From contig DATJIF010000029.1 of the NCBI GenBank assembly GCA_035493475.1, forward strand, positions 102,163 to 126,162: 24,000 nucleotides of DNA. The letters are read 5' to 3'. Below, in pieces: positions 4,507-16,920 of this stretch. Source of the DNA: Actinospica sp. (GTDB taxonomy: Bacteria > Actinomycetota > Actinomycetes > Streptomycetales > Catenulisporaceae). A program made the position numbers and the translations under genes. A model generated the notes under the pieces. It was not told the origin of the DNA. It did no database searches and worked only from the letters and a program-made list of their open reading frames with translations. How positions within the stretch are numbered: the stretch's first letter is position 1; the number at the start of each line of letters is the position of its first letter.

Positions 4507-7494
4507 ATGCGCCCACGTGGCGGACTGAGCCGGGAGGAAGCCGATCGTCTCGACCAGGTCCGCGGACACACGGACCCGGACAACGAGACCTGGACCAGCG
4601 TTTACGACCTGCGCGGCCGCGTCACCGAGAAGGAAGACCCCACCGCCGGCAACTCGTTCATGGCCTACGACCCGAACGGCAACCTCGTCCAGTCCGAGGA
4701 CTCCCGCAGCAAGTACATCTCCTACGTCTACGACAAGCTCGGCCGAACAACCGCCGAATACGCCGCCCAAAACGTGGCCGCCGATCAGACCGCAGGGCCG
4801 AGCGGCACTCAGATGTACCAGTGGTACTACGACAACAGCAACCATGCCATCTCCGGGATGACCAATCCGATCGGACAACTGACCACCCAGACCACGTACG
4901 CGAACGGCGCCACCTACACCGAGCAGACAGCCGGGTTCAACATCTTCGGCGAATCTCTCGGCGAAGAGATCATCATCCCGTCCACTGTCACTGGGCTCGC
5001 CGGCACCTACACGATCACGCACACCTACACCACGTACACGGGCCTGCCGTTCAAGGACACCTACTCCAGCTTCGGCGGCATCAACAGCGAAACCACCGAG
5101 CACAGCTACAGCGGACTGTTTGACAGTCCCAGCGAGCTGGCCGACGCGAACTATGGCTACGCCCAGTACGTCGACTACGACGCGTACAGCCGCCCCACTC
5201 AGGAGCAGATCGGCGGATCCACCGGCACCGCCGAGATCACCAACACCTACGACGTACACACCGGAAGCCTGCACGAGCAGAACATCTCGCGCCAGACCGC
5301 CACCCCCACCGCCGTCGACGACACCGTTTACACCGACGACCCGTCCGGCAACATCACCCAGCAGACTGAGACCCGCCTCGGGTCCTCCAGCGACACCGAA
5401 ACCCAGTGCTACCAGTACAACGGTCTCGACCAACTCAACCAGGCCTGGTCCGCCACCGCCGCCTGCACCACGGCACCGACCGCGAGCAACGTCGCCAACA
5501 CCCTCGGCACGGGCAGCGCCTACTGGGACTCCTGGACCTTCAACAACGAAGGCGACCGTACCGGCCAGACCCAATACGCCATCGGCACCGCGACCACCAA
5601 CACCACCACTACCTACACCTACAGCAGCAGCCAACCCCACACCCTGGCCAGTACAAGCACCACCGGCGGGACCACCGCCAACACCAGCTACGGATACGAC
5701 ACTGCCGGCAACACCACCGGCCGCACCACCCCGACCGACGGCACCCAAACCCTGAACTGGAACAACGCCGAACAACTCGCCTCTGTCAACACCACCACGG
5801 CAGGCACGGCCAACACCGCCGGAACCAGCAGCTACGTCTACGACCCCTCCGGCAAACTGCTCCTGCAAATCACCCCGACCGCCACCACTGTCTACTTCGA
5901 AAACGAACAAGCCACCCACAGCACCAGCAACGGCGCAGTCACCGGCATCCGCTACCTCGCACTCCCTGGTGGCGGCACGGCCGTGCGCACCGGCAACACC
6001 ACCAACTACACCTTCGAGATCACCGACCAGCACGGCACCGCCGACCTCGACCTCGACTACACCTGCCAAACCCCCACCTGGCGCCAATACGACCCTTACG
6101 GCAATTCTCGCGGCGCTACCGCCACCTGGGTTGACAACCGGGGATTCCTCAACGATGTCAACGACACCAGCACCGGCATCACCGACATCGGAGCCCGTTG
6201 GTATGACGCCAGCCTCGGAAGGTTTGCAAGTCTCGATCCCGTCTTCGAAGCGTGGGACACCCTAGCTCTCGGCGGCTACACCTACACCGACGGCAACCCC
6301 GTTGGCGAAGCGGACCCGACGGGTCTTATGCTCCCCTATGGCAAGGCGGCCAGCGACGGGTGCACCACCCAGGCGCAATGCAATTCAGATGTCGTGCAGT
6401 ACAACAAAGAAGTCCTCAGGAACGCAATCACCGAAGCGGGCTGGGACGAGCAGACGGAATGGCACGCGCGAAAGATAGCTGCACAGTATCGCTGCGGCGG
6501 AATCAGCACCGATACCAACTGCGGAACACTGAGCTGGCAACAAGAGCACGAAATCCAGTACAAGTACACTCAGCAGCTCGAGTTACTTCAGAACGAACTC
6601 CTTAAAATCGACAACACCCTCTGGCCCGGGCTCGCCGGCTGCATAAACGGCAACCAGAACGGCGACTGCGTTCCAGCCGTAGCGACCGGCATCACGTTTG
6701 CCAGTGGCGCTGCGGAAGACGACGGCACGAACGCACCCGCCTGCGGAGGAGACAGCTTCACGGCCGACACGAAGGTCCTCACCTCTACGGGCAAGACAGT
6801 GCCGATCACCTCGCTCAAGGTCGGCGACAAGGTGATATCGGCCAACACCACGACCGGGAAGAACCAAGCTGAAACCGTGGACGCAGTCCTTGTCCACCAC
6901 GACACAAACCTCTACAACCTCACCGTCGAGACCGGCCACGGCATCGAAGTCATCCACGCGACCGCCAACCACCTCATCTGGGACCTCACCCAGCACGCCT
7001 GGATCCAAGCTAGCAAGATCCACAAGGGCGACCGGCTCCTCACGGAGAATGGCGCTACGGCAACAGTGGACGGCGGCAGCGCTCCCGCCGACCAAACCGG
7101 TTGGATGTGGGACCTCACCGTACACGACCTGCATGCGTTCTACGTGTTGGCGGGCAACACGCCGGTCCTCGTGCACAATGCCGGTGGTGCGGCCAACTGT
7201 CTTATCGGCCAGCAGGGTGAGGCGGCGTCTGGGATCACCAAGAACACGCGGACGATCATCATCAATGGGCGGCCGCGCATCCCAGATGAGCTCGATCCGG
7301 CTGCGGGTATCATTGGTGAGGTGAAGAACGTGAAGTATCAGTACCTCTCGACCCAGCTGAAGGACGACCTGTCGTATGCGCAAGCGAACGGCTTTCAGTT
7401 CAATCTATATGTGAATAGCGCGACTCAGCTCTCCAGCCCCCTTCAGTCCCTGGTTGACTCAGGGCAGATCAACCTCATCAGGAACATTCCATGA
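4507..7494 (+). CDS. Rhs/YD-repeat polymorphic toxin, N-terminally truncated (Rhs core + PT-HINT + REase-fold toxin)
   Basis: 995 aa. YD repeats occur throughout (YDLRGRVTEKED, YDPNGNLVQSED, YVYDKLGR, YGYDTAGN, YVYDPSGKLL). The Rhs core end is DPYGNSRG...GARWYDASLGRFASLDPV...DPTGLM (nt 6313-6330). An in-frame TAG sits two codons upstream of the ATG (4501-4503). No signal or secretion domain is present. Confidence 0.9.
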   Translation: MRPRGGLSREEADRLDQVRGHTDPDNETWTSVYDLRGRVTEKEDPTAGNSFMAYDPNGNLVQSEDSRSKYISYVYDKLGRTTAEYAAQNVAADQTAGPSGTQMYQWYYDNSNHAISGMTNPIGQLTTQTTYANGATYTEQTAGFNIFGESLGEEIIIPSTVTGLAGTYTITHTYTTYTGLPFKDTYSSFGGINSETTEHSYSGLFDSPSELADANYGYAQYVDYDAYSRPTQEQIGGSTGTAEITNTYDVHTGSLHEQNISRQTATPTAVDDTVYTDDPSGNITQQTETRLGSSSDTETQCYQYNGLDQLNQAWSATAACTTAPTASNVANTLGTGSAYWDSWTFNNEGDRTGQTQYAIGTATTNTTTTYTYSSSQPHTLASTSTTGGTTANTSYGYDTAGNTTGRTTPTDGTQTLNWNNAEQLASVNTTTAGTANTAGTSSYVYDPSGKLLLQITPTATTVYFENEQATHSTSNGAVTGIRYLALPGGGTAVRTGNTTNYTFEITDQHGTADLDLDYTCQTPTWRQYDPYGNSRGATATWVDNRGFLNDVNDTSTGITDIGARWYDASLGRFASLDPVFEAWDTLALGGYTYTDGNPVGEADPTGLMLPYGKAASDGCTTQAQCNSDVVQYNKEVLRNAITEAGWDEQTEWHARKIAAQYRCGGISTDTNCGTLSWQQEHEIQYKYTQQLELLQNELLKIDNTLWPGLAGCINGNQNGDCVPAVATGITFASGAAEDDGTNAPACGGDSFTADTKVLTSTGKTVPITSLKVGDKVISANTTTGKNQAETVDAVLVHHDTNLYNLTVETGHGIEVIHATANHLIWDLTQHAWIQASKIHKGDRLLTENGATATVDGGSAPADQTGWMWDLTVHDLHAFYVLAGNTPVLVHNAGGAANCLIGQQGEAASGITKNTRTIIINGRPRIPDELDPAAGIIGEVKNVKYQYLSTQLKDDLSYAQANGFQFNLYVNSATQLSSPLQSLVDSGQINLIRNIP
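6742..7179 (+). other. Hint (intein-like, pre-toxin HINT) domain inside the Rhs protein
   Basis: CGGDSFTADTKVLTSTGKTVPITSLKVGDKVIS ... HAFYVLAGNTPVLVHN. It has an N-terminal Cys and a C-terminal His-Asn, as in Hint/intein autoproteolytic modules that release polymorphic-toxin tips. Confidence 0.8.
7180..7491 (+). other. C-terminal toxin tip, restriction-endonuclease (PD-(D/E)xK) fold, Tox-REase-5-like
   Basis: 104 aa follow the VHN cleavage motif: GQQGEAASG...RPRIPDELDPAAGIIGEVKNVKYQYLSTQLKD...AQANGFQFNLYV. The PD...E-x-K arrangement and overall pattern resemble REase-fold polymorphic toxin domains. The family assignment is from memory only. Confidence 0.6.
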
Positions 7495-8237
7495 CGGGTG
7501 AGAATAGCTCTAGCGTGAATTCCGGGCGGTTGACGCACAAGCAAGCTGTCGAGAAGGCGCTAAGCGACCCAGTGGCGCGCGCGGCAATTGCGAGTGATCC
7601 GCGTGTGGCTCAACGGCGGCAACTCTATGCGGAGAGTGCGGCAGGATTGCTCGCTGAACTGGCCGACCTGGGCTTCCGTGTCGAGAGCGTCGGCGAGCTC
7701 GCCCGTCAACGCATGAAGTACGAGGCAGCGGTACCGGCTCTGCTCAGGTGGCTTCCTCGAGCGACGTATCTACCGCTGGCCGAGGATATTGTTCGGACGC
7801 TCTCTGTCACCTTCGCAAAGAAGCGGGCATTGCCAGAGTTCTTGAAGTTCTTCCGCTGCCCACCGGACGTGGAAGACCCGATGCGCCCAGCAACCTCAGA
7901 GCCAGCCAGCGAGCATCTCCGTTGGGTCGTCGGTAATGGGTTGGGTATATTTGCAGGGCCTTCAGTTGCTGACGAGCTCATTGAGCTCGCCCTCGACAAA
8001 TCGTTCGGTCAGGCACGAACGCAGATCGTCCTTGCCTTGCCGAAGACGAAAGATAGCAGGGTGGGCGATGTGCTGATTGAGCTTCTCGACGATCCCACTG
8101 TTTGTGCATTCGCCATTGAGGCGCTTGGAAAGACGAAGATCGTCGCAGCCGAAGGGTCGATCGAGAGACTTCTCGACCACCCGGATAAGAATATTAGAGA
8201 CCAAGCCAAGAGGGCTCTTAAACGTATCCGAAGCTGA
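7491..8237 (+). CDS. HEAT-repeat protein, probable cognate immunity protein of the Rhs toxin tip
   Basis: The ATG at 7491 overlaps the Rhs TGA (ATGA, 7491-7494). 248 aa. C-terminal HEAT/PBS-lyase-like repeats (DSRVGDVLIELLDDP, AIEALGKT, SIERLLDHPDKNIRDQAKRALKRI). It uses more A/T-ending codons than its neighbours. Confidence 0.75.
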   Translation: MTGENSSSVNSGRLTHKQAVEKALSDPVARAAIASDPRVAQRRQLYAESAAGLLAELADLGFRVESVGELARQRMKYEAAVPALLRWLPRATYLPLAEDIVRTLSVTFAKKRALPEFLKFFRCPPDVEDPMRPATSEPASEHLRWVVGNGLGIFAGPSVADELIELALDKSFGQARTQIVLALPKTKDSRVGDVLIELLDDPTVCAFAIEALGKTKIVAAEGSIERLLDHPDKNIRDQAKRALKRIRS

Positions 8238-11091: not shown

Positions 11092-11763
11092 TCATGGCAG
11101 CAGGTTCACACCCGTGACCTCACCAGTTGTAGCGATTTCGTCGATCTTCATGGTGGCGTCGATTCGTTGCGGTGATCTGGCGGAGGTACGCACTGCAGTC
11201 AGCGAACCGCCAGCAGTGCCGACCTGAATGTCAAGGGAGATCAGGCCATCGGGCGCGTTCGATCGTCGCTCGGCCAAGTCGGGGGCGAGTGCGGTCAGCT
11301 GCTTGATGAGATCGGGTATCAGGCTTCGTTGACGGCCGCCGCGCTCTAGTCGGACGGCCTGTCGGCCCAGAAGCGGCGCGATGTCCCTCGGTAAATCCCC
11401 TTCTCCGGGAAGGGAGACCTCGTTGAGGTTCCCGAGCAGCAGGGGGATGACGTGGTTGCCATTCTCCAGCGCCAACCTGATCTCCCGGCGGACCCAGTCG
11501 TGAGGGTCGTCCAGCCGGCGGGCGCCGTTGCGGTTCTGCGCGGTGAGCCAGCCGGGGCCAATGCAGACGAGCATCACGCGGCACGAAGCGGCTCGGGCTT
11601 CCAGAACTGGTGTGAACTCCTGTCCTGGGCGTAGGGTCTGCCCCGCCTTGAACACGACCTCCGCGCCGAACGCCTCGGCGAGTTTCTCGTAGACGAAGTC
11701 CGGACCCCAGTCGCCGGCCTCGCCGCGGTAGCTGACGAAGATGACGGGCTCACGGTCGGGCAT
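11092..11763 (-). CDS. TIR-domain protein with C-terminal repeat-motif tail
   Basis: The ATG at 11763 has GGAG 7 nt upstream. 223 aa. TIR signatures are VIFVSYRGEAGD, SCRVMLVCIGPGW, DWVRREIRLAL (W-x-x-x-E with the catalytic-type Glu retained) and HVIPLLL. The tail (aa 175-222) is ISLDIQVGTAGGSLTAVRT...IDATMKIDEIATTGEVTGVNLL. The start overlaps the upstream gene by 14 nt. Confidence 0.9.
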   Translation of the reverse strand: MPDREPVIFVSYRGEAGDWGPDFVYEKLAEAFGAEVVFKAGQTLRPGQEFTPVLEARAASCRVMLVCIGPGWLTAQNRNGARRLDDPHDWVRREIRLALENGNHVIPLLLGNLNEVSLPGEGDLPRDIAPLLGRQAVRLERGGRQRSLIPDLIKQLTALAPDLAERRSNAPDGLISLDIQVGTAGGSLTAVRTSARSPQRIDATMKIDEIATTGEVTGVNLLP

Positions 11764-13237
11764 CAAGAGTCTCCAGTCGTGTGGCGGGGGGCCGCGGCCG
11801 CGCGGTGCGCGCCAGGGTGATGATGTCGGGCGCCAGGGCCCGAAGCCGGGCGGCCCGGCGTCGGGACAGGATCGACACGAGGCGTCGCAGGTCGCGTTGG
11901 ATTGTGATCGACCCGTTCGGTACCGCGGGGAGAAAGGATTCGATGACATCGGCCGCCCGGTCGCACTCGTGGACGTGCGCGTACGCTGTCGCCTCCCTGA
12001 TCGCAAAGCAAACCCGGGCGTGTCGGAAGGCCGGGTTCGGCTCCCGATCGTTCGGAAACGTACTCGGCATGGTCGTGGCGAACATATCCGCGGCCCTGCG
12101 GAACTCCTCCAGTTCCAGCAGCCCCGAGGCCTCGGTCAGGCGTGATGAGCTGAGCTCCGGGTCCCACGCCGGACCCCACTCCCAGTCCTCCGCGGACGGG
12201 GAGGACACGTCGTCGGAGACGTCGTAGAAGGCGTCCATCGCGCGCCGGAATCCCTCGCGGTCGCCGCTGCGGGCCCGAGCCCGGGACTCGCGTTGCAGGG
12301 CGATTCGGCGCAGTCTCGTCGGCAGGGCCGGGTCTGACAGCGCGAACTGGACGTGGTGCAGAGCGGAACGCGGATCGTCGGCCCGCAGCGCGGTCGCCGA
12401 TTGGCGGATCGCAGCGTACGCGGCGATCGCGGTGTCTCCGCTGTCGGAGCCGAGACAGACGGCCAGGGCCAGCCATTCATGCATCGCCTGCGCGTCGCCT
12501 AGTTCCTCCGCGAGCCAGCTCAAATACTCCGCATAGCGCGCCTCGACGCGGCGATACGCGAGAGCTCGCCCGGCTGACGCCGTACGTGCGGCTGAGTGGA
12601 GTGCGACGAGCTGGGCGACGACGTCGTTCACTACGGCGGCAGGTCCGACGAGATGCCGTTGTGTGCGTAAACGCTCCAACTCCGCCGCAGCTTCGACGAC
12701 AACCACGTTGACGGGCATCGGGGGCCGGGAACATCCGATCCGGGACAGCAACGACACGCTCGGGACCGTCACCGGATCCGTCGGGCGCCCGGATTCTGCG
12801 GCGAACAGCCTGACCAACGCGCCGCTCTGTCCGAGCTCTTTGTCCAACCGTCCCGCCACGTACTTCGTCCCGAGGGAATGTCCATTCTCAAGCTTGCTGA
12901 CGTACACGTGTGAAAGTCCTGCCGCCTTTGCCAGATCACGTTGCGACAGGCCGACCGCGTTTCTAGCGCGTCGGATCTCCCCGCCGTAGCCGGCGGCTAC
13001 CGGGCACTCCGCTTCAGGTGTGTGGCGCGTGGGCCGCGGCGCGACGACCGGGCCGGGCCGCTCGCATAAGGACTCGTAGACCCGCATCAGGCGCGTGGAT
13101 GCGGGCCGCAGCCCGTTCTCGACCTTGCTCAGGTGACCCTTGCTGTAGTCGGTGAGCCGCACGATCTGCCCCAGGCTGACGCCCGACGCTTCGCGCAGCG
13201 CGCGAAGCGTCCTGCCGTCCCCGCTCGATGTCCCCAT
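11750..13237 (-). CDS. dual XRE-family HTH protein with TPR-like helical C-terminal domain
   Basis: The ATG at 13237 gives 495 aa. It has two Cro/C1-type HTH units (RTLRALREASGVSLGQIVRLTDYSKGHLSKVENG and IRRARNAVGLSQRDLAKAAGLSHVYVSKLENG). About 300 aa of Ala/Leu/Arg-rich helical repeats follow. The ORF-track entry 11750..14953 over-extends upstream, antisense to real plus-strand genes. There is no SD before the ATG, so the transcript may be leaderless. Confidence 0.85.
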   Translation of the reverse strand: MGTSSGDGRTLRALREASGVSLGQIVRLTDYSKGHLSKVENGLRPASTRLMRVYESLCERPGPVVAPRPTRHTPEAECPVAAGYGGEIRRARNAVGLSQRDLAKAAGLSHVYVSKLENGHSLGTKYVAGRLDKELGQSGALVRLFAAESGRPTDPVTVPSVSLLSRIGCSRPPMPVNVVVVEAAAELERLRTQRHLVGPAAVVNDVVAQLVALHSAARTASAGRALAYRRVEARYAEYLSWLAEELGDAQAMHEWLALAVCLGSDSGDTAIAAYAAIRQSATALRADDPRSALHHVQFALSDPALPTRLRRIALQRESRARARSGDREGFRRAMDAFYDVSDDVSSPSAEDWEWGPAWDPELSSSRLTEASGLLELEEFRRAADMFATTMPSTFPNDREPNPAFRHARVCFAIREATAYAHVHECDRAADVIESFLPAVPNGSITIQRDLRRLVSILSRRRAARLRALAPDIITLARTARPRPPATRLETLDARP

Positions 13238-13387
13238 ACGTAGCAAAGTACTGAAAAATCTGGCCTCCTGGGATGCGTCTCGCGACGCTATGGAGTACTT
13301 GGGGAGCGTCGAGTAAACACGCAACAGTTCTCCGCGCGCCGCCGGGTTGCTAGTTTCACTGATCGCCGAACACGTAGATCTGGGGGA
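13238..13387. promoter_or_regulatory. divergent promoter/operator region of the two operons
   Basis: 150-bp gap with the most A/T-rich sequence of the locus (TAGCAAAGTACTGAAAAATC). AGTACT palindromic cores occur at 13247-13252 and 13294-13299. TACTTT ends 8 nt before the HTH-gene ATG and is a possible -10 box for a leaderless transcript. Confidence 0.4.
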
Positions 13388-13927
13388 ATGATGGCTGATC
13401 CAGACACGGTGGCGATTCCGGTGCTCGCCGGAGCGGCACTCACCCAAGGAGTGTCGTTTCTGTACGGCCAGGCTGCCGAGGCGCTGCGGATCAGGCGAGA
13501 GGGCAGGGCGGCGCACCGTTCGGCCCTGCTCGTCCCCGAAGCCTTCGAACCTGCGGACTTCGCTGTAGTCCCCGATCTTGCCGTGCTCGATGCTCGAGCC
13601 CGCGAGCTGCGGATGCTGCTGGCCATCGCTGAGCCGTTTGCGGGGTGCTCTGCGGACGACCTCGACGGTGCAGACGAATCGTTCCGTGCCTGCTTCGGCC
13701 ATATCCGCTTGGCCTTGGAGGAGATCTATGGCACCCGTTTCACGTTCTCTGGCGAACGGCGCCCCGGACCGCGCATCCAGCAGAGCGTCTCCGATGTTCG
13801 CGGCCGCACCACGGGAATGAGGGTCCGCGGCCAGGGGGCGAAAGCATCCGGAGAGATCGTCCAGCGAGTCAAAACCGTCCACCAGAGCGGTGAACTGACC
13901 GGCCTCGACATCGACTTCCGGGCCTGA
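13388..13927 (+). CDS. small protein: N-terminal hydrophobic Gly/Ala helix (Bell/HeLo-like?) + C-terminal repeat-motif tail
   Basis: 179 aa with tandem ATG ATG at 13388 and GGGGGA immediately upstream. The N-terminus is DTVAIPVLAGAALTQGVSFLYGQAAEALRIRREGR. The tail (aa 130-175) is IQQSVSDVRGRTTGMRV...IVQRVKTVHQSGELTGLDI. It lies 72 nt upstream of the STAND-like gene. Confidence 0.7.
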   Translation: MMADPDTVAIPVLAGAALTQGVSFLYGQAAEALRIRREGRAAHRSALLVPEAFEPADFAVVPDLAVLDARARELRMLLAIAEPFAGCSADDLDGADESFRACFGHIRLALEEIYGTRFTFSGERRPGPRIQQSVSDVRGRTTGMRVRGQGAKASGEIVQRVKTVHQSGELTGLDIDFRA

Positions 13928-13999: not shown

Positions 14000-16174
14000 A
14001 TGGACACGCTTGAGGCGGCGAACGCGACGACTCGACAGGAGATGGATGCGCCCGATCCACTCGACCACACCTTGGCGGTGGAGCGGAAACTTGAGCGGCT
14101 TGGGACCTCCATCCCCTCCACGTCGCCGGGCATCGAGGCGACTGCGCACGTGGAGAAGAACGACGGAGTCATCAATCTCTTGAACGTTGTGTTGACCGAG
14201 GCGCTGAAACTCTCGCACCTGGGTCCGGCCTACCTCGACGAGGTCCACGAGACATTTGCCGAGCCCGGTGAGAGCTTCGACCAGGCCTACAACACCCTGT
14301 GCGGCGAGCAGCGATTCGTCGTCCTGAAGCTGCGGCCGGACAGCGGGACGAAGACTGCGGCCATCGCCATGATCAGACGACTCGTGCTGGAGATGCATGT
14401 CGAGTCGAAGTATCTCCTCCCGCACGGCCCGACCGGCCTTCCCACGGCTGCGCTGGCCACTGAGAGGTGCCATGCCTTTCTCATGGATCTGTCCAAGGCG
14501 GAAGAGAGCCGACTCACCAGCGGGTTCGGGAGGGACCTCAAGGCCGCGTCGGCAATCCTGGCCGATGCGAACTCGTACCTGATCGTGCTGGCCGAGGCCG
14601 AGCAGTGGGCCCGGATCAGTGACGGCGTAGAGAGAGGTGTGCTGCATGAATTGCAGGCGCCCGGTCCGGAATCGGTGGCCCGGAAGTGGGTGGCCGCGAA
14701 AGCGCCGGGATGCGACGTCATGAAGTGGTTCGGCGATCGGCGGATCGCGGGACTCTTGCAGGACCAGAGCCCGCGCGAGGCGGTTGAGATCGCGAAGCTG
14801 ATCTGTGCCGCGCTCTCTCCCGAGATCCAGCCCGAGCGCACCGCAACCGCTGTGAAATCGGACTCTTCGGCCGCGGACACAGATTTTCAAGTGCGGGTCG
14901 CCAGCGTTGTGGACGCTCGAAGGCAGTGGCGCCCACAACTCCTGGACTGGCACAGGGAACCGAAACGGACGGCTTTCGAACGCAACTTCCTGCTCGTTGC
15001 CGCCGTGTTACGCGAGTTCCCGGTCGGAGCCGTTTTCAAGGAAGCGAAGTACCTGAGCGAGCAGTTCAAGGACGTGGGCGAGCGTATGAAGGGTCAGAGC
15101 GGTCCGGGTGTCATTGAACTGCTGCACACGATCGGCGCGCCCACCGACCCCGGCGGCAAGGTCCGCTTCTCACGCCCGCGATGGGCCGAGGCCGTCGTCG
15201 ACTACTACTGGAGTGACCGGCCCGACGGCCACGACGCCTTCATCAGCTGGCTGATTCGACTGCCGTTGAGCCGTACGTTCCAGGACGACGAGCGTGCCAC
15301 CGTGGCCAATCGCGTCCTTGAGGTCATGTTCGGTCTGATCATGACGAAAGCCCGGGTCAACGAGCTTGAACACGTCATCGACCAGTGGAGCGCCCAGCCG
15401 AACACGGAGACTGCGGCTTGGGACTTCCTCGACGCCGCCGCGCTGCACCACACATTGGGCCGTCAGGTCGCTCAGCTCATGCTCCGCTGGACGGGTACGG
15501 CTCATGTCCGTCGGCGCAAAGCAGTCGCGGCGGTATGCGGCCGCCAATTCGGACGAACCAATACAGGGAAGGCGCTCGTGCGGCTCCGCCGCCTTGTCGC
15601 CGACGAAGAGCCCGAGGTCGCCGCAGTGGCCGAACGGGCCTTGGTCGCGCTGTGGGAGCAGCCGGACGTCGGCCGCGAGCTTCTCGAACACCTCGTCGAG
15701 TGGCAGAAGACTGATGTCGCGGACCGTGTCGTGGCTGCCCGGAACATCTTCGGCAAGATCGCCGCGCTCCGCTCGCGGACCGACCCGACTCGCCCAGACC
15801 TACTGGTCTGGGCAGTGGCGAACGACGAGAATCTGAGCCTGGTGGCCGAGGGATGGCGCTGTCTGCTGGAAGGTGGCATCGAGTGTGATCCGCTGGTCGA
15901 CGCGTTGCGCCCATGGCTCGCGATGGCACGGGACGAAGCGGACGTCGAAGCCGACGTGATGTCCGTGTTCGAACGGGCCATCTCAGGACGACGGCGGGCA
16001 GCGGAAAGGCTGGAAAGGGCCGCCCAAGACTGGCGTTGGTCCACCGGTGACGTGGACCAGAGCCCGGCCGGCCGCCTCGTTCGCCGGCTCAGCGGACTCA
16101 CGGCGCAAGAACCGGTCACGACCATGTTCGCGGCGACGTTCGACGTTTCCAGTGAGCAAGGATATGGGGCGTGA
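14000..16174 (+). CDS. STAND/NLR-like protein with N-terminal repeat motif, degenerate P-loop and HEAT/ARM-like C-terminal region
   Basis: The ATG at 14000 is preceded by GAGGGAGAA. 724 aa. The N-terminal motif is IEATAHVEKNDGVINLL (aa 45-61, nt 14132-14182). The strand-plus-P-loop-like segment RFVVLKLRPDSGTKTAAIAMI (nt 14330-14356 covers LRPDSGTKT) keeps Lys-Thr but lacks both canonical glycines. A Walker-B-like HAFLMDLS follows. The C-terminal half is a helical repeat (EEPEVAAVAERALVALWEQPDVGRELLEHLVEW). Confidence 0.8.
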   Translation: MDTLEAANATTRQEMDAPDPLDHTLAVERKLERLGTSIPSTSPGIEATAHVEKNDGVINLLNVVLTEALKLSHLGPAYLDEVHETFAEPGESFDQAYNTLCGEQRFVVLKLRPDSGTKTAAIAMIRRLVLEMHVESKYLLPHGPTGLPTAALATERCHAFLMDLSKAEESRLTSGFGRDLKAASAILADANSYLIVLAEAEQWARISDGVERGVLHELQAPGPESVARKWVAAKAPGCDVMKWFGDRRIAGLLQDQSPREAVEIAKLICAALSPEIQPERTATAVKSDSSAADTDFQVRVASVVDARRQWRPQLLDWHREPKRTAFERNFLLVAAVLREFPVGAVFKEAKYLSEQFKDVGERMKGQSGPGVIELLHTIGAPTDPGGKVRFSRPRWAEAVVDYYWSDRPDGHDAFISWLIRLPLSRTFQDDERATVANRVLEVMFGLIMTKARVNELEHVIDQWSAQPNTETAAWDFLDAAALHHTLGRQVAQLMLRWTGTAHVRRRKAVAAVCGRQFGRTNTGKALVRLRRLVADEEPEVAAVAERALVALWEQPDVGRELLEHLVEWQKTDVADRVVAARNIFGKIAALRSRTDPTRPDLLVWAVANDENLSLVAEGWRCLLEGGIECDPLVDALRPWLAMARDEADVEADVMSVFERAISGRRRAAERLERAAQDWRWSTGDVDQSPAGRLVRRLSGLTAQEPVTTMFAATFDVSSEQGYGA

Positions 16175-16920
16175 AACGGTGGTGGAGGAGCGGTTCGGGC
16201 AACCTGGCGTGGCTCGAACCGTTCAGCGACCGCGTGCCCGGCGCGGATGGCTTTGGCTTCGACGTCGAATACCACATCGAAATACTCGCCGCCGACGCGG
16301 ATGCCTTGTCGACGCAGTATGACCCGTGTATAGCTGCCGTCCGCACGCTGGTTGAGCCGGCCTTGGCCCAGTGTGACGTCCTGCGTTCCGCAGTTGCACA
16401 ACAGAGTGTGAATTTACAGATATCGAGATCAATGTCGAAGCGCGAACTGGGTGCCGTCATCCGGCAATGCCAGGTGTCCGTTCGGGTTGGGCGCGAGACC
16501 GCCGAATCGGCCAGACGGCACGCCAAGGCGCTCATGGATGCGAAGGCCCATGAGGTGGGCCGAGACGCGGTACGTGCGCAGATGCGATTCCTTGAGACGG
16601 AAGTGCTGCGCAACCCGGCGACACTTCGGGTCTACATCTTGGCGACCGAGATCATGCAGGACAAGTCTGTCTCCGCCAAGGGCGTCGACGAGCTGGAGTC
16701 CCTGGCCAGACTGGTTTATGAGTGGTCGCCCGAGGCCACGTGGGTGGAGACCGCGAAGATCCTGAACGCCCACCTCGGTAGCCTCCCTTGCCACGAAGTC
16801 TCGGCCCTGCTCTCGACGCTCCGGAAAAGCATCCAAGAGCACGACAATCCGGCCCTGGTCGATCGGTTCGACCGGATCCACCATGGGCAGCAGGCCGACA
16901 GCCTCGTGAAGGGGACGTGA
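16171..16920 (+). CDS. hypothetical protein (helical/coiled-coil-looking), translationally coupled
   Basis: The GTG at 16171 overlaps the upstream TGA (GTGA), with AAGGA 8 nt upstream. 249 aa. No recognisable domain. The central region ETAESARRHAKALMDAKAHEVGRDAVRAQMRFLETEVL looks coiled-coil. Confidence 0.7.
   Translation: MKRWWRSGSGNLAWLEPFSDRVPGADGFGFDVEYHIEILAADADALSTQYDPCIAAVRTLVEPALAQCDVLRSAVAQQSVNLQISRSMSKRELGAVIRQCQVSVRVGRETAESARRHAKALMDAKAHEVGRDAVRAQMRFLETEVLRNPATLRVYILATEIMQDKSVSAKGVDELESLARLVYEWSPEATWVETAKILNAHLGSLPCHEVSALLSTLRKSIQEHDNPALVDRFDRIHHGQQADSLVKGT

Follow-up and report, generated by a model that had tools for sequence, protein, structure and literature searches.

We analysed a window of 24,000 nucleotides (nt) of Actinospica sp. 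DNA (contig DATJIF010000029.1), in which a gene on the minus strand encodes P0001, a protein with two helix-turn-helix (HTH) units of the XRE family and a C-terminal domain resembling tetratricopeptide repeats (TPR). From sequence comparison, we consider P0001 probably to be the dedicated transcription factor of a mobile five-gene cassette for regulated cell death or defence. P0001 and a TIR effector are encoded on one strand of this cassette; a Bell-like protein, an NLR-like protein and a 249-residue partner are encoded on the other. The evidence lies mainly in the reciprocal linkage of the regulator clade with a clade of TIR proteins, and in an operator-like DNA element in the divergent control region.

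The Pfam profiles HTH_31 (66.2 bits, cut-off 27, best match at residues 8-62) and HTH_3 (55.7 bits, cut-off 23, best match at residues 88-121) each reported two matched stretches in P0001, above the curated cut-offs. The first unit, HTH1 (residues 8-62; positions 13052-13216, minus strand), is of the HTH_31 type typical of the family, and contains a helix, YSKGHLSKVE, that is nearly invariant among homologues. HTH2 (residues 84-149; 12791-12988, minus strand) is a second five-helix XRE unit, of the HTH_3 type, and is 33% identical to HTH1 over 39 residues. An AlphaFold2 model built on an alignment of 83 sequences had a predicted local distance difference test score (pLDDT) of 88.4 and a predicted template modelling score of 0.76. 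It places the helices of HTH1 at residues 8-59, a disordered linker at 64-77, the five helices of HTH2 at 84-149 and 14 further helices at 176-477. The profile matches and the five-helix folds together identify two units of the XRE (Cro/C1) type, as a preliminary description of this DNA had proposed.

The 14 helices form a predicted TPR-like alpha-solenoid (residues 176-477; 11807-12712, minus strand). Residues 155-467 align with positions 136-428 of the NCBIfam profile NF053720, 'NsdA family TPR-like regulatory protein' (E 6e-11). A Foldseek search of the Protein Data Bank (PDB) with the model returned only TPR superhelices (among them Tom70/71, designed consensus TPRs and LGN), with E-values above 1e-3 and template modelling (TM) scores of 0.25-0.45. 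The profile match, the confident model and the fold matches confirm, for the predicted structure, the TPR-like C terminus suggested earlier. Six of its residues (E237, W241, R278, A313, A382 and R414) are invariant across the 83 sequences. The only loop of the repeat domain modelled with low confidence is Trp-rich, at about residues 341-360. It includes WEWGPAWDPE (residues 346-355; 12172-12201), whose pattern WEWGPxWDP is conserved in the subfamily of close relatives with two HTHs, and could be a partner- or ligand-binding loop.

The combination of HTH and TPR had been likened to the peptide sensors of the RRNPP type (PlcR, AimR, Rap, NprR and PrgX), so that P0001 would be a quorum sensor binding an imported signalling peptide. 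These are likewise one-component regulators, in which an XRE HTH at the N terminus is joined to a TPR sensor at the C terminus, and they use local operators beside the genes they control, as P0001 would at its candidate operator. PlcR, AimR and RapH were present in the Foldseek list at ranks 9, 37 and 40 (MalT domain III was at rank 25). However, with E-values of 0.02-0.07 and TM-scores of 0.26-0.47 they lay amid hundreds of generic TPR proteins; Tom70, designed TPRs and LGN matched at least as well. When PDB sequences were searched by profile with P0001, the only matches were to HTH domains, ClgR being the best. The short open reading frames (ORFs) of the intergenic region, and those that lie past the TIR gene, all lack signal-peptide-like features, and no small ORF is conserved in or around the cassette, whose flanks are unrelated between loci. 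The earlier failure to find a convincing signalling-peptide ORF nearby thus held good over a larger set of loci. Unlike the RRNPP proteins, P0001 has no detected cognate peptide gene and shows no specific fold or sequence relationship to them; it has two HTHs, and its operator candidate is a tandem hexamer. Members of the family have been seen only in Actinomycetota and metagenomes, and every relative with a name is actinobacterial, whereas RRNPP proteins come from Firmicutes or their phages. We regard a peptide sensor of this type as highly improbable, the least probable of the readings considered here.

The ORF of P0001 (11750-13237, minus strand) runs from an ATG at 13237-13235 to a TGA at 11752-11750, and encodes 495 residues. 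The reading frame is open far upstream of 13237, as far as 14953. However, homologues start at the same Met, and in DNA alignments the non-coding pattern of conservation stops at this ATG in 12 of 14 loci, the other two, which are the most divergent, having GTG there. The shared Met and the end of non-coding conservation therefore support a start at 13237. The TIR gene begins with an ATG at 11763-11761, inside ATGCCCGACCGTGA. The two genes therefore overlap by 14 nt (11750-11763, minus strand), and the P0001 stop codon lies within the TIR gene, in agreement with the preliminary description. In 13 related cassette loci the overlap is 8 nt (ATGCCTGA) in 11 and 1 nt in one, and there is a 2-nt gap in one. 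The window has CGA in place of the TGA of ATGCCTGA, which adds two codons and so accounts for the 14-nt overlap; by this comparison the 8-nt overlap is likely to be the ancestral state. The P0001-TIR pair thus has the adjacency and overlap of genes that characterise type II toxin-antitoxin pairs, co-transcription itself being presumed.

The TIR effector, P0002 (223 residues; 11092-11763, minus strand; Pfam TIR_2, E 1e-9), has a C-terminal tail of two repeats. Its presumed catalytic Glu, E94 in D-W-x-R-x-E, is kept in 79 of 79 homologues. P0025 (179 residues; 13388-13927, plus strand), encoded divergently from P0001, was classed as Bell-like from sequence features: an acidic start (MPDPD), a hydrophobic N-terminal helix, a helical body and a beta tail of two repeats. 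An AlphaFold2 model of P0025 had low confidence (pLDDT 51.6). The ORF opens with two ATG codons (13388-13393), homologues have a single Met, and a G-rich stretch resembling a ribosome-binding site (13382-13386) fits the ATG at 13391; judged from the sequence, this second ATG is probably the real start. Sequence comparison identified P0026 (724 residues; 14000-16174, plus strand) as NLR/STAND-like, with a tail-like motif near its N terminus. The gene for P0027 (249 residues; 16171-16920, plus strand) overlaps that of P0026 by 4 nt, and by the same kind of comparison is conserved in the cassettes.

The HTH-TIR pair is kept in all of the 13 dual-HTH loci for which context was available, and a divergent gene for 176-180 residues is present wherever the contig extends there. 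Where the contig reaches far enough, the cassette comprises the dual-HTH gene, the TIR gene, the divergent gene and genes for about 710-740 and 235-260 residues. In Catenulispora sp. MAP12-49 the last two are replaced by a gene for a 1502-residue AAA_16 STAND protein. The flanks vary among loci (an Rhs toxin and an integrase, a sigma factor, or an EACC1 gene), and have no DNA similarity with the flanks in the window. Because the flanks differ from locus to locus, the comparison indicates that the five-gene cassette moves as a unit.

A similar repeat pattern occurs twice in the tail of P0025, twice in the tail of the TIR protein and as one motif near the N terminus of P0026. The pattern is visible by eye in 7-8 cassettes, and the BLAST match between TIR and Bell-like tails is weak (E 0.17). 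By sequence, the three proteins look like effector/NLR amyloid-signalling pairs in layout. In the Bell/BASS-NLR pairs of filamentous bacteria (Dyrka et al. 2020, bioRxiv 10.1101/2020.01.06.895854) and in Bab/Agp of E. coli (bioRxiv 10.1101/2024.11.07.622273), as may be the case in the cassette, the effector has a C-terminal motif and the NLR protein a similar one near its N terminus. Effectors joining TIR_2 with a BASS motif are mentioned by Dyrka et al., and the searchable text of that preprint contains no mention of an HTH, a helix-turn-helix or a regulator component. The cassette differs from such pairs in that a dedicated HTH-TPR gene is nearly constant and two effectors share one cassette. 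PADLOC reported nothing for the TIR, Bell-like and NLR-like proteins, and matched P0001 over the HTH only (capH and control proteins).

The linkage of regulator and TIR extends far beyond the dual-HTH subfamily. Among 82 loci holding relatives of P0001, 69 have a TIR gene within 800 nt of the regulator gene: directly downstream on the same strand in 56, divergent and upstream in 7, and upstream on the same strand in 6. The remaining 13 have none within this distance, and 11 loci lack any TIR. The linkage was also examined in reverse. The window's own genome has four TIR homologues of the clade, and none is farther than about 3 kb from an HTH-TPR gene. A Streptomyces genome of 10.3 Mb has 12 paralogues matching NF053720 and a single TIR of the clade, which lies beside exactly one of them. 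As linkage holds in both directions, the constant pair is the regulator and the TIR protein, and by these comparisons the two clades are reciprocally linked. The earlier proposal that P0001 is tied to the TIR effector therefore agrees with these comparisons, without the RRNPP specifics attached to it. Elsewhere in the window's genome (contig C155:153301-157684), one TIR homologue lies directly downstream of a paralogous single-HTH regulator, with a second about 2 kb further on. An apparent HTH-TIR fusion in L043 was rejected, as its translation has a stop between the two genes.

Other members of the module vary. In 43 loci the TIR gene is followed by a gene for a protein of about 650 residues, whose match to Pfam nSTAND3 falls just under the cut-off. 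These NTPases of the wider clade (L054:10035-11981 and L055:10110-12107) have the Walker A motif GSGRRT, with Arg for the usual Lys; P0026 of the window has RPDSGTKT. In two Streptomyces loci of the divergent-TIR type (L072:4940-7234 and L013:4925-7141), what follows the TIR gene encodes a protein-kinase-like domain fused to a PQQ beta-propeller, in place of an NTPase. The TIR open frames in L022 and L037, of about 1570-1590 residues, are probably TIR-STAND fusions. The third partner of the module is, on this comparative evidence, swappable. In one Actinosynnema sp. locus (L046:3982-8109) a single-HTH relative precedes a 1375-residue TPR-CHAT (caspase-like) protein instead of a TIR protein, so TIR is not the only death effector with which the regulator clade can pair.

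Such close linkage also raises the question of an antitoxin-like guard. P0001 would then neutralise the TIR protein by direct binding, its TPR groove holding the TIR domain or the amyloid-forming tail, and would regulate its own synthesis like the XRE-type antitoxins of type II systems. Tom70/71-type TPRs, the best fold matches of P0001, bind extended peptide tails. The regulator nearly always adjoins the TIR gene, the dual-HTH subfamily has kept the overlap of stop and start, and modules with the TIR gene first exist (L006, L007, L012 and L059). However, the overlap is confined to that subfamily; in the 56-57 downstream cases of the wider clade the gap between the genes is mostly about 0-125 nt, start codons being estimated. 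The preliminary description had taken the tight overlap as a sign of stoichiometric control, which would thus apply to the dual-HTH subfamily at most. At 495 residues P0001 is also far above the typical size of an antitoxin, and several TPR residues are invariant although the TIR tails differ among subfamilies. One relative precedes the TPR-CHAT protein rather than a TIR protein, and there are the 11 loci without TIR. In addition, a TIR protein that has a templating tail would be expected to stay inactive until it is triggered (inferred from Dyrka et al. 2020). A guard of this kind seems unlikely to us.

The homology with NF053720 bears on another interpretation, that P0001 is a pleiotropic developmental regulator like NsdA and lies next to the TIR gene by coincidence. 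In S. rimosus, promoter binding and repression by NsdA have been reported (PMC12243394). Proteins of the NsdA family, such as NsdA and NsdB of Streptomyces, have an XRE HTH_31 head and a helical-repeat C-terminal domain homologous to that of P0001, and more distant relatives of P0001 with 28-31% identity match NF053720 with 173 bits (L054) and 169 bits (L055). P0001 itself differs from the family in having an additional HTH, placed after the family HTH and before the repeats, and its score is under the cut-off. NF053720 describes proteins of about 430 residues with one N-terminal HTH and repeats; P0001 has two HTHs and 495 residues. By the curated measure, the sequence of P0001 is that of a divergent relative of the NsdA family and not of a member. 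The Streptomyces genome with 12 paralogues could favour a pleiotropic role, 11 of them not being linked to TIR. These 11 also lack the upstream element described below, whereas the clade of P0001 is tied to both TIR and element. Since the TIR-linked clade is distinct, the linkage holds across many genera and gene orders, and the candidate operator occurs once in the genome, at the cassette, we find incidental adjacency very unlikely.

The origin of the second HTH was followed through the relatives. A word-based search found about 20 close relatives with 50-80% identity, from Catenulispora strains and metagenomes, which have two HTHs, and a few single-HTH proteins with 27-30% identity. In a scan of one genome per species, 293 stretches encode relatives of P0001; 80 of these were kept, and all are from Actinomycetota. 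A second HTH was found in none of 78 more distant relatives from genomes, and in 58 of these the single HTH resembled HTH1 more than HTH2. HTH2 therefore seems, by sequence, to have been added after the family HTH and ahead of the repeat domain. With P0001 as query, an exhaustive phmmer search gave 985 matches at E <=1e-3, of which 304 were at <=1e-10, and these included seven further metagenomic clusters (50% identity) with two HTHs, 30-35% identical to P0001. The view that a duplicated HTH is uncommon thus applies to the distant relatives from genomes but does not make P0001 an isolated case; from these searches the dual-HTH form is a minority within the family and not unique to the cassette of the window. 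In the single-HTH relatives P0022-P0024, a twin-arginine-like RRxxL and a hydrophobic stretch rich in Gly and Ala lie between HTH and repeats, at the place of HTH2 in P0001 (alignment columns about 180-240).

The upstream region of the dual-HTH gene was aligned in 14 cassettes, giving three conserved blocks. Block 1, CAGTAC(T/C)T, ends about 8 nt before the start codon. Block 2, GTTGC(C/G)TGTT, is invariant in 14 of 14 cassettes while the neighbouring columns vary; it is usually preceded by GAGAACT, and in the two most divergent loci (L001 and L113) is doubled, 21 nt apart. Block 3 is TGAAACTAGCAAC, with variants. In the 150-bp divergent region of the window (13238-13387) this alignment defines two boxes. 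Box B (GTAAAC-A-CGCAAC; 13313-13325, plus strand) is a tandem-hexamer operator candidate just upstream of the predicted -35 element of the divergent promoter, and box A (TGAAAC-T-AGCAAC; 13346-13358, minus strand) is an inverted second copy. The boxes form a 13-bp inverted repeat with 9 of 13 positions matching and a 20-bp spacer. A nearly invariant block, CAGTACTTTG (13244-13253, minus strand), ends 6 nt before the P0001 ATG.

Both boxes consist of two GNNAAC hexamers one base apart, the same form as an element found throughout the clade. Independent k-mer enrichment in the single-HTH relatives yielded AGAGGAAACGGGAAAC or GGCAACGGGAAAC. Of 81 regulator genes, 49 had GSMAAC-N-GGAAAC, with at most one mismatch, in the 330 nt preceding them; none of 81 coding controls of equal size contained it. 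The element occurs on either strand, and twice in three divergent-TIR loci (L018, L035 and L040). It was also found upstream of members without TIR (L010, L015, L019 and L041), and therefore follows the regulator rather than the TIR gene. In the 10.3-Mb Streptomyces genome the exact 13-mer occurs twice, one copy lying 126 nt upstream of the TIR-linked regulator; the element was not found near the other 11 NF053720 paralogues. Box B is the only match in the 24-kb window, and nowhere else in the 7.8-Mb genome does the 14-mer around it occur; a single copy in a single window has no statistical meaning, and the weight rests on conservation across loci. By this conservation, the clade has a private upstream tandem-hexamer operator candidate. 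Additional copies, exact or nearly so, away from HTH, TIR or STAND homologues were seen in a Streptomyces genome (8294350; L116:2851) and in the window's own genome (L117:1279 and L118:2554), and may be chance matches or extra targets.

Box A overlaps a predicted -10 element of P0025, TAGTTT (13351-13356, plus strand), and TANNNT is found there in 14 of 14 loci. The predicted -35 of the P0025 operon is GTTCTC or TTCTCC, 17-18 nt upstream of TAGTTT, and box B abuts it in the same orientation as in the single-HTH relatives. On the other side, the P0001 gene has no Shine-Dalgarno sequence and has a -10-like TACTTT 7 nt before its ATG, from which its mRNA is probably leaderless. A promoter of the extracytoplasmic function (ECF) type, with GAGAAC or TGAAAC as -35, was considered and dropped, there being no conserved -10 at a distance of 16-18 nt.

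These positions suggest how P0001 may act. P0001, probably oligomerised through its TPR-like domain, would bind boxes A and B. With box A occupied over the predicted -10 and box B at the predicted -35, the Bell/NLR (pore-former) operon would be kept off; repression of this operon is favoured because occupancy of box A would occlude its -10. P0001 would also control its own TIR operon, and P0001 and the TIR protein would be made together from a probably leaderless, translationally coupled message. A signal, either a protein partner or a ligand, would be received by the TPR-like domain and alter DNA binding. Least certain of all is the direction of regulation, and a switch between activation and repression is possible.

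Several points count against P0001 as the transcription factor of the cassette, or against repression as its mode of action. DNA binding by P0001 and its control of the operons are predictions. P0001 scores 42.5 bits against NF053720, under the curated cut-off of 75 bits. The element was not found at the threshold used upstream of 32 of 81 relatives. A consensus promoter scan found no sigma-70-type site, the hexamers being predictions read by eye, and the conservation of box A may be due in part to the -10 element itself. Finally, relatives of the Streptomyces type have a -35-like TTGTYC located 10-14 nt downstream of the end of the box, with cAnnnT following 17-19 nt later. This places the box of single-HTH relatives at about -55 (some 45-55 nt upstream of the predicted start site), a position that suggests an activator rather than a repressor.

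Such a position would suit a second sensor, whose TPR-like domain detects an invader or stress and turns the cassette on in the manner of PlcR or AfsR, or which activates the TIR protein directly. Box B of the window, abutting the predicted -35 in the same orientation, is compatible with activation. So is the composition of some loci: the six loci whose TIR gene is upstream on the same strand, and several loci of the Actinomadura type, showed no third partner, and TIR proteins of the L012/L059 type have an extra N-terminal region. On the other hand, the location of box A over the predicted -10 fits repression, and the promoter positions are all predicted. XRE-family proteins are mostly repressors. 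Repression is also what has been reported for NsdA (PMC12243394). Activation is possible, but we do not think it likely, and P0001 as dedicated transcription factor, probably acting by repression on the Bell/NLR operon, is the reading we retain.

This reading can be taken further. The lineage of actinobacterial HTH-TPR proteins might be a master switch of TIR and amyloid death modules, each with its private tandem-hexamer operator, the TPR groove sensing what state the death machinery is in, for instance through free amyloid-forming effector tails or a nucleotide made by the TIR protein. A single protein would then tie transcription to the post-translational gating of cell death, and the dual-HTH form would put four DNA-reading heads on four hexamers. 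We consider this extension a speculative one and unlikely.

The known kind to which P0001 belongs is the one-component HTH-TPR regulator attached to a toxic effector operon, and its lineage is a variant of that kind. In CapH/CapP, BrxR/CapW and the XRE antitoxins (Xre of RES-Xre, HipB and MqsA), as here, an HTH protein heads or diverges from the operon of a toxic effector. P0001 differs from all of these in its TPR domain of about 300 residues and its two HTHs, the PADLOC matches being to the HTH only, and it is accompanied by neither a protease partner nor a WYL domain. A literature search found no description of such a regulator next to a TIR gene, and the triad of regulator, TIR and operator candidate appears to be undescribed. 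Bacterial death systems of the NLR-like, TIR and amyloid-signalling types are usually described as pairs of sensor and effector, with no component devoted to controlling their expression. In the loci compared here, one lineage of regulators accompanies a TIR clade through many genera of actinobacteria, and does so with any of several third partners: NTPases resembling nSTAND3, kinase-like proteins with a beta-propeller, TIR-STAND fusions, or a Bell-like together with an NLR-like protein. In practice, the recognisable DNA element offers a handle for finding such cassettes, and the candidate operator and its protein form a defined pair with which to ask when multicellular actinomycetes arm or disarm suicide modules. 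Part of the large and poorly understood NsdA-like family also gains a functional context.

The neighbourhoods of the cassettes contain further genes of interest. Tyrosine integrases are found near the cassette in the window and in L090 and L112. A role of P0001 as repressor of an integrative element was nevertheless dropped, since the integrases of the window and of L090 share only 33% identity and no DNA similarity was seen between the flanks. Positions 4507-8237 of the window encode a polymorphic toxin of the Rhs type, which carries PT-HINT and Tox-REase-7 domains, and after it a HEAT-repeat protein, possibly the corresponding immunity protein. The cassette in L090 likewise has an Rhs gene beside it, together with an integrase. 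Just downstream of the cassette in L092 lie a gene for EACC1 (effector-associated constant component; L092:5607-5975) and a further large gene, which look like a second conflict system in the same island.

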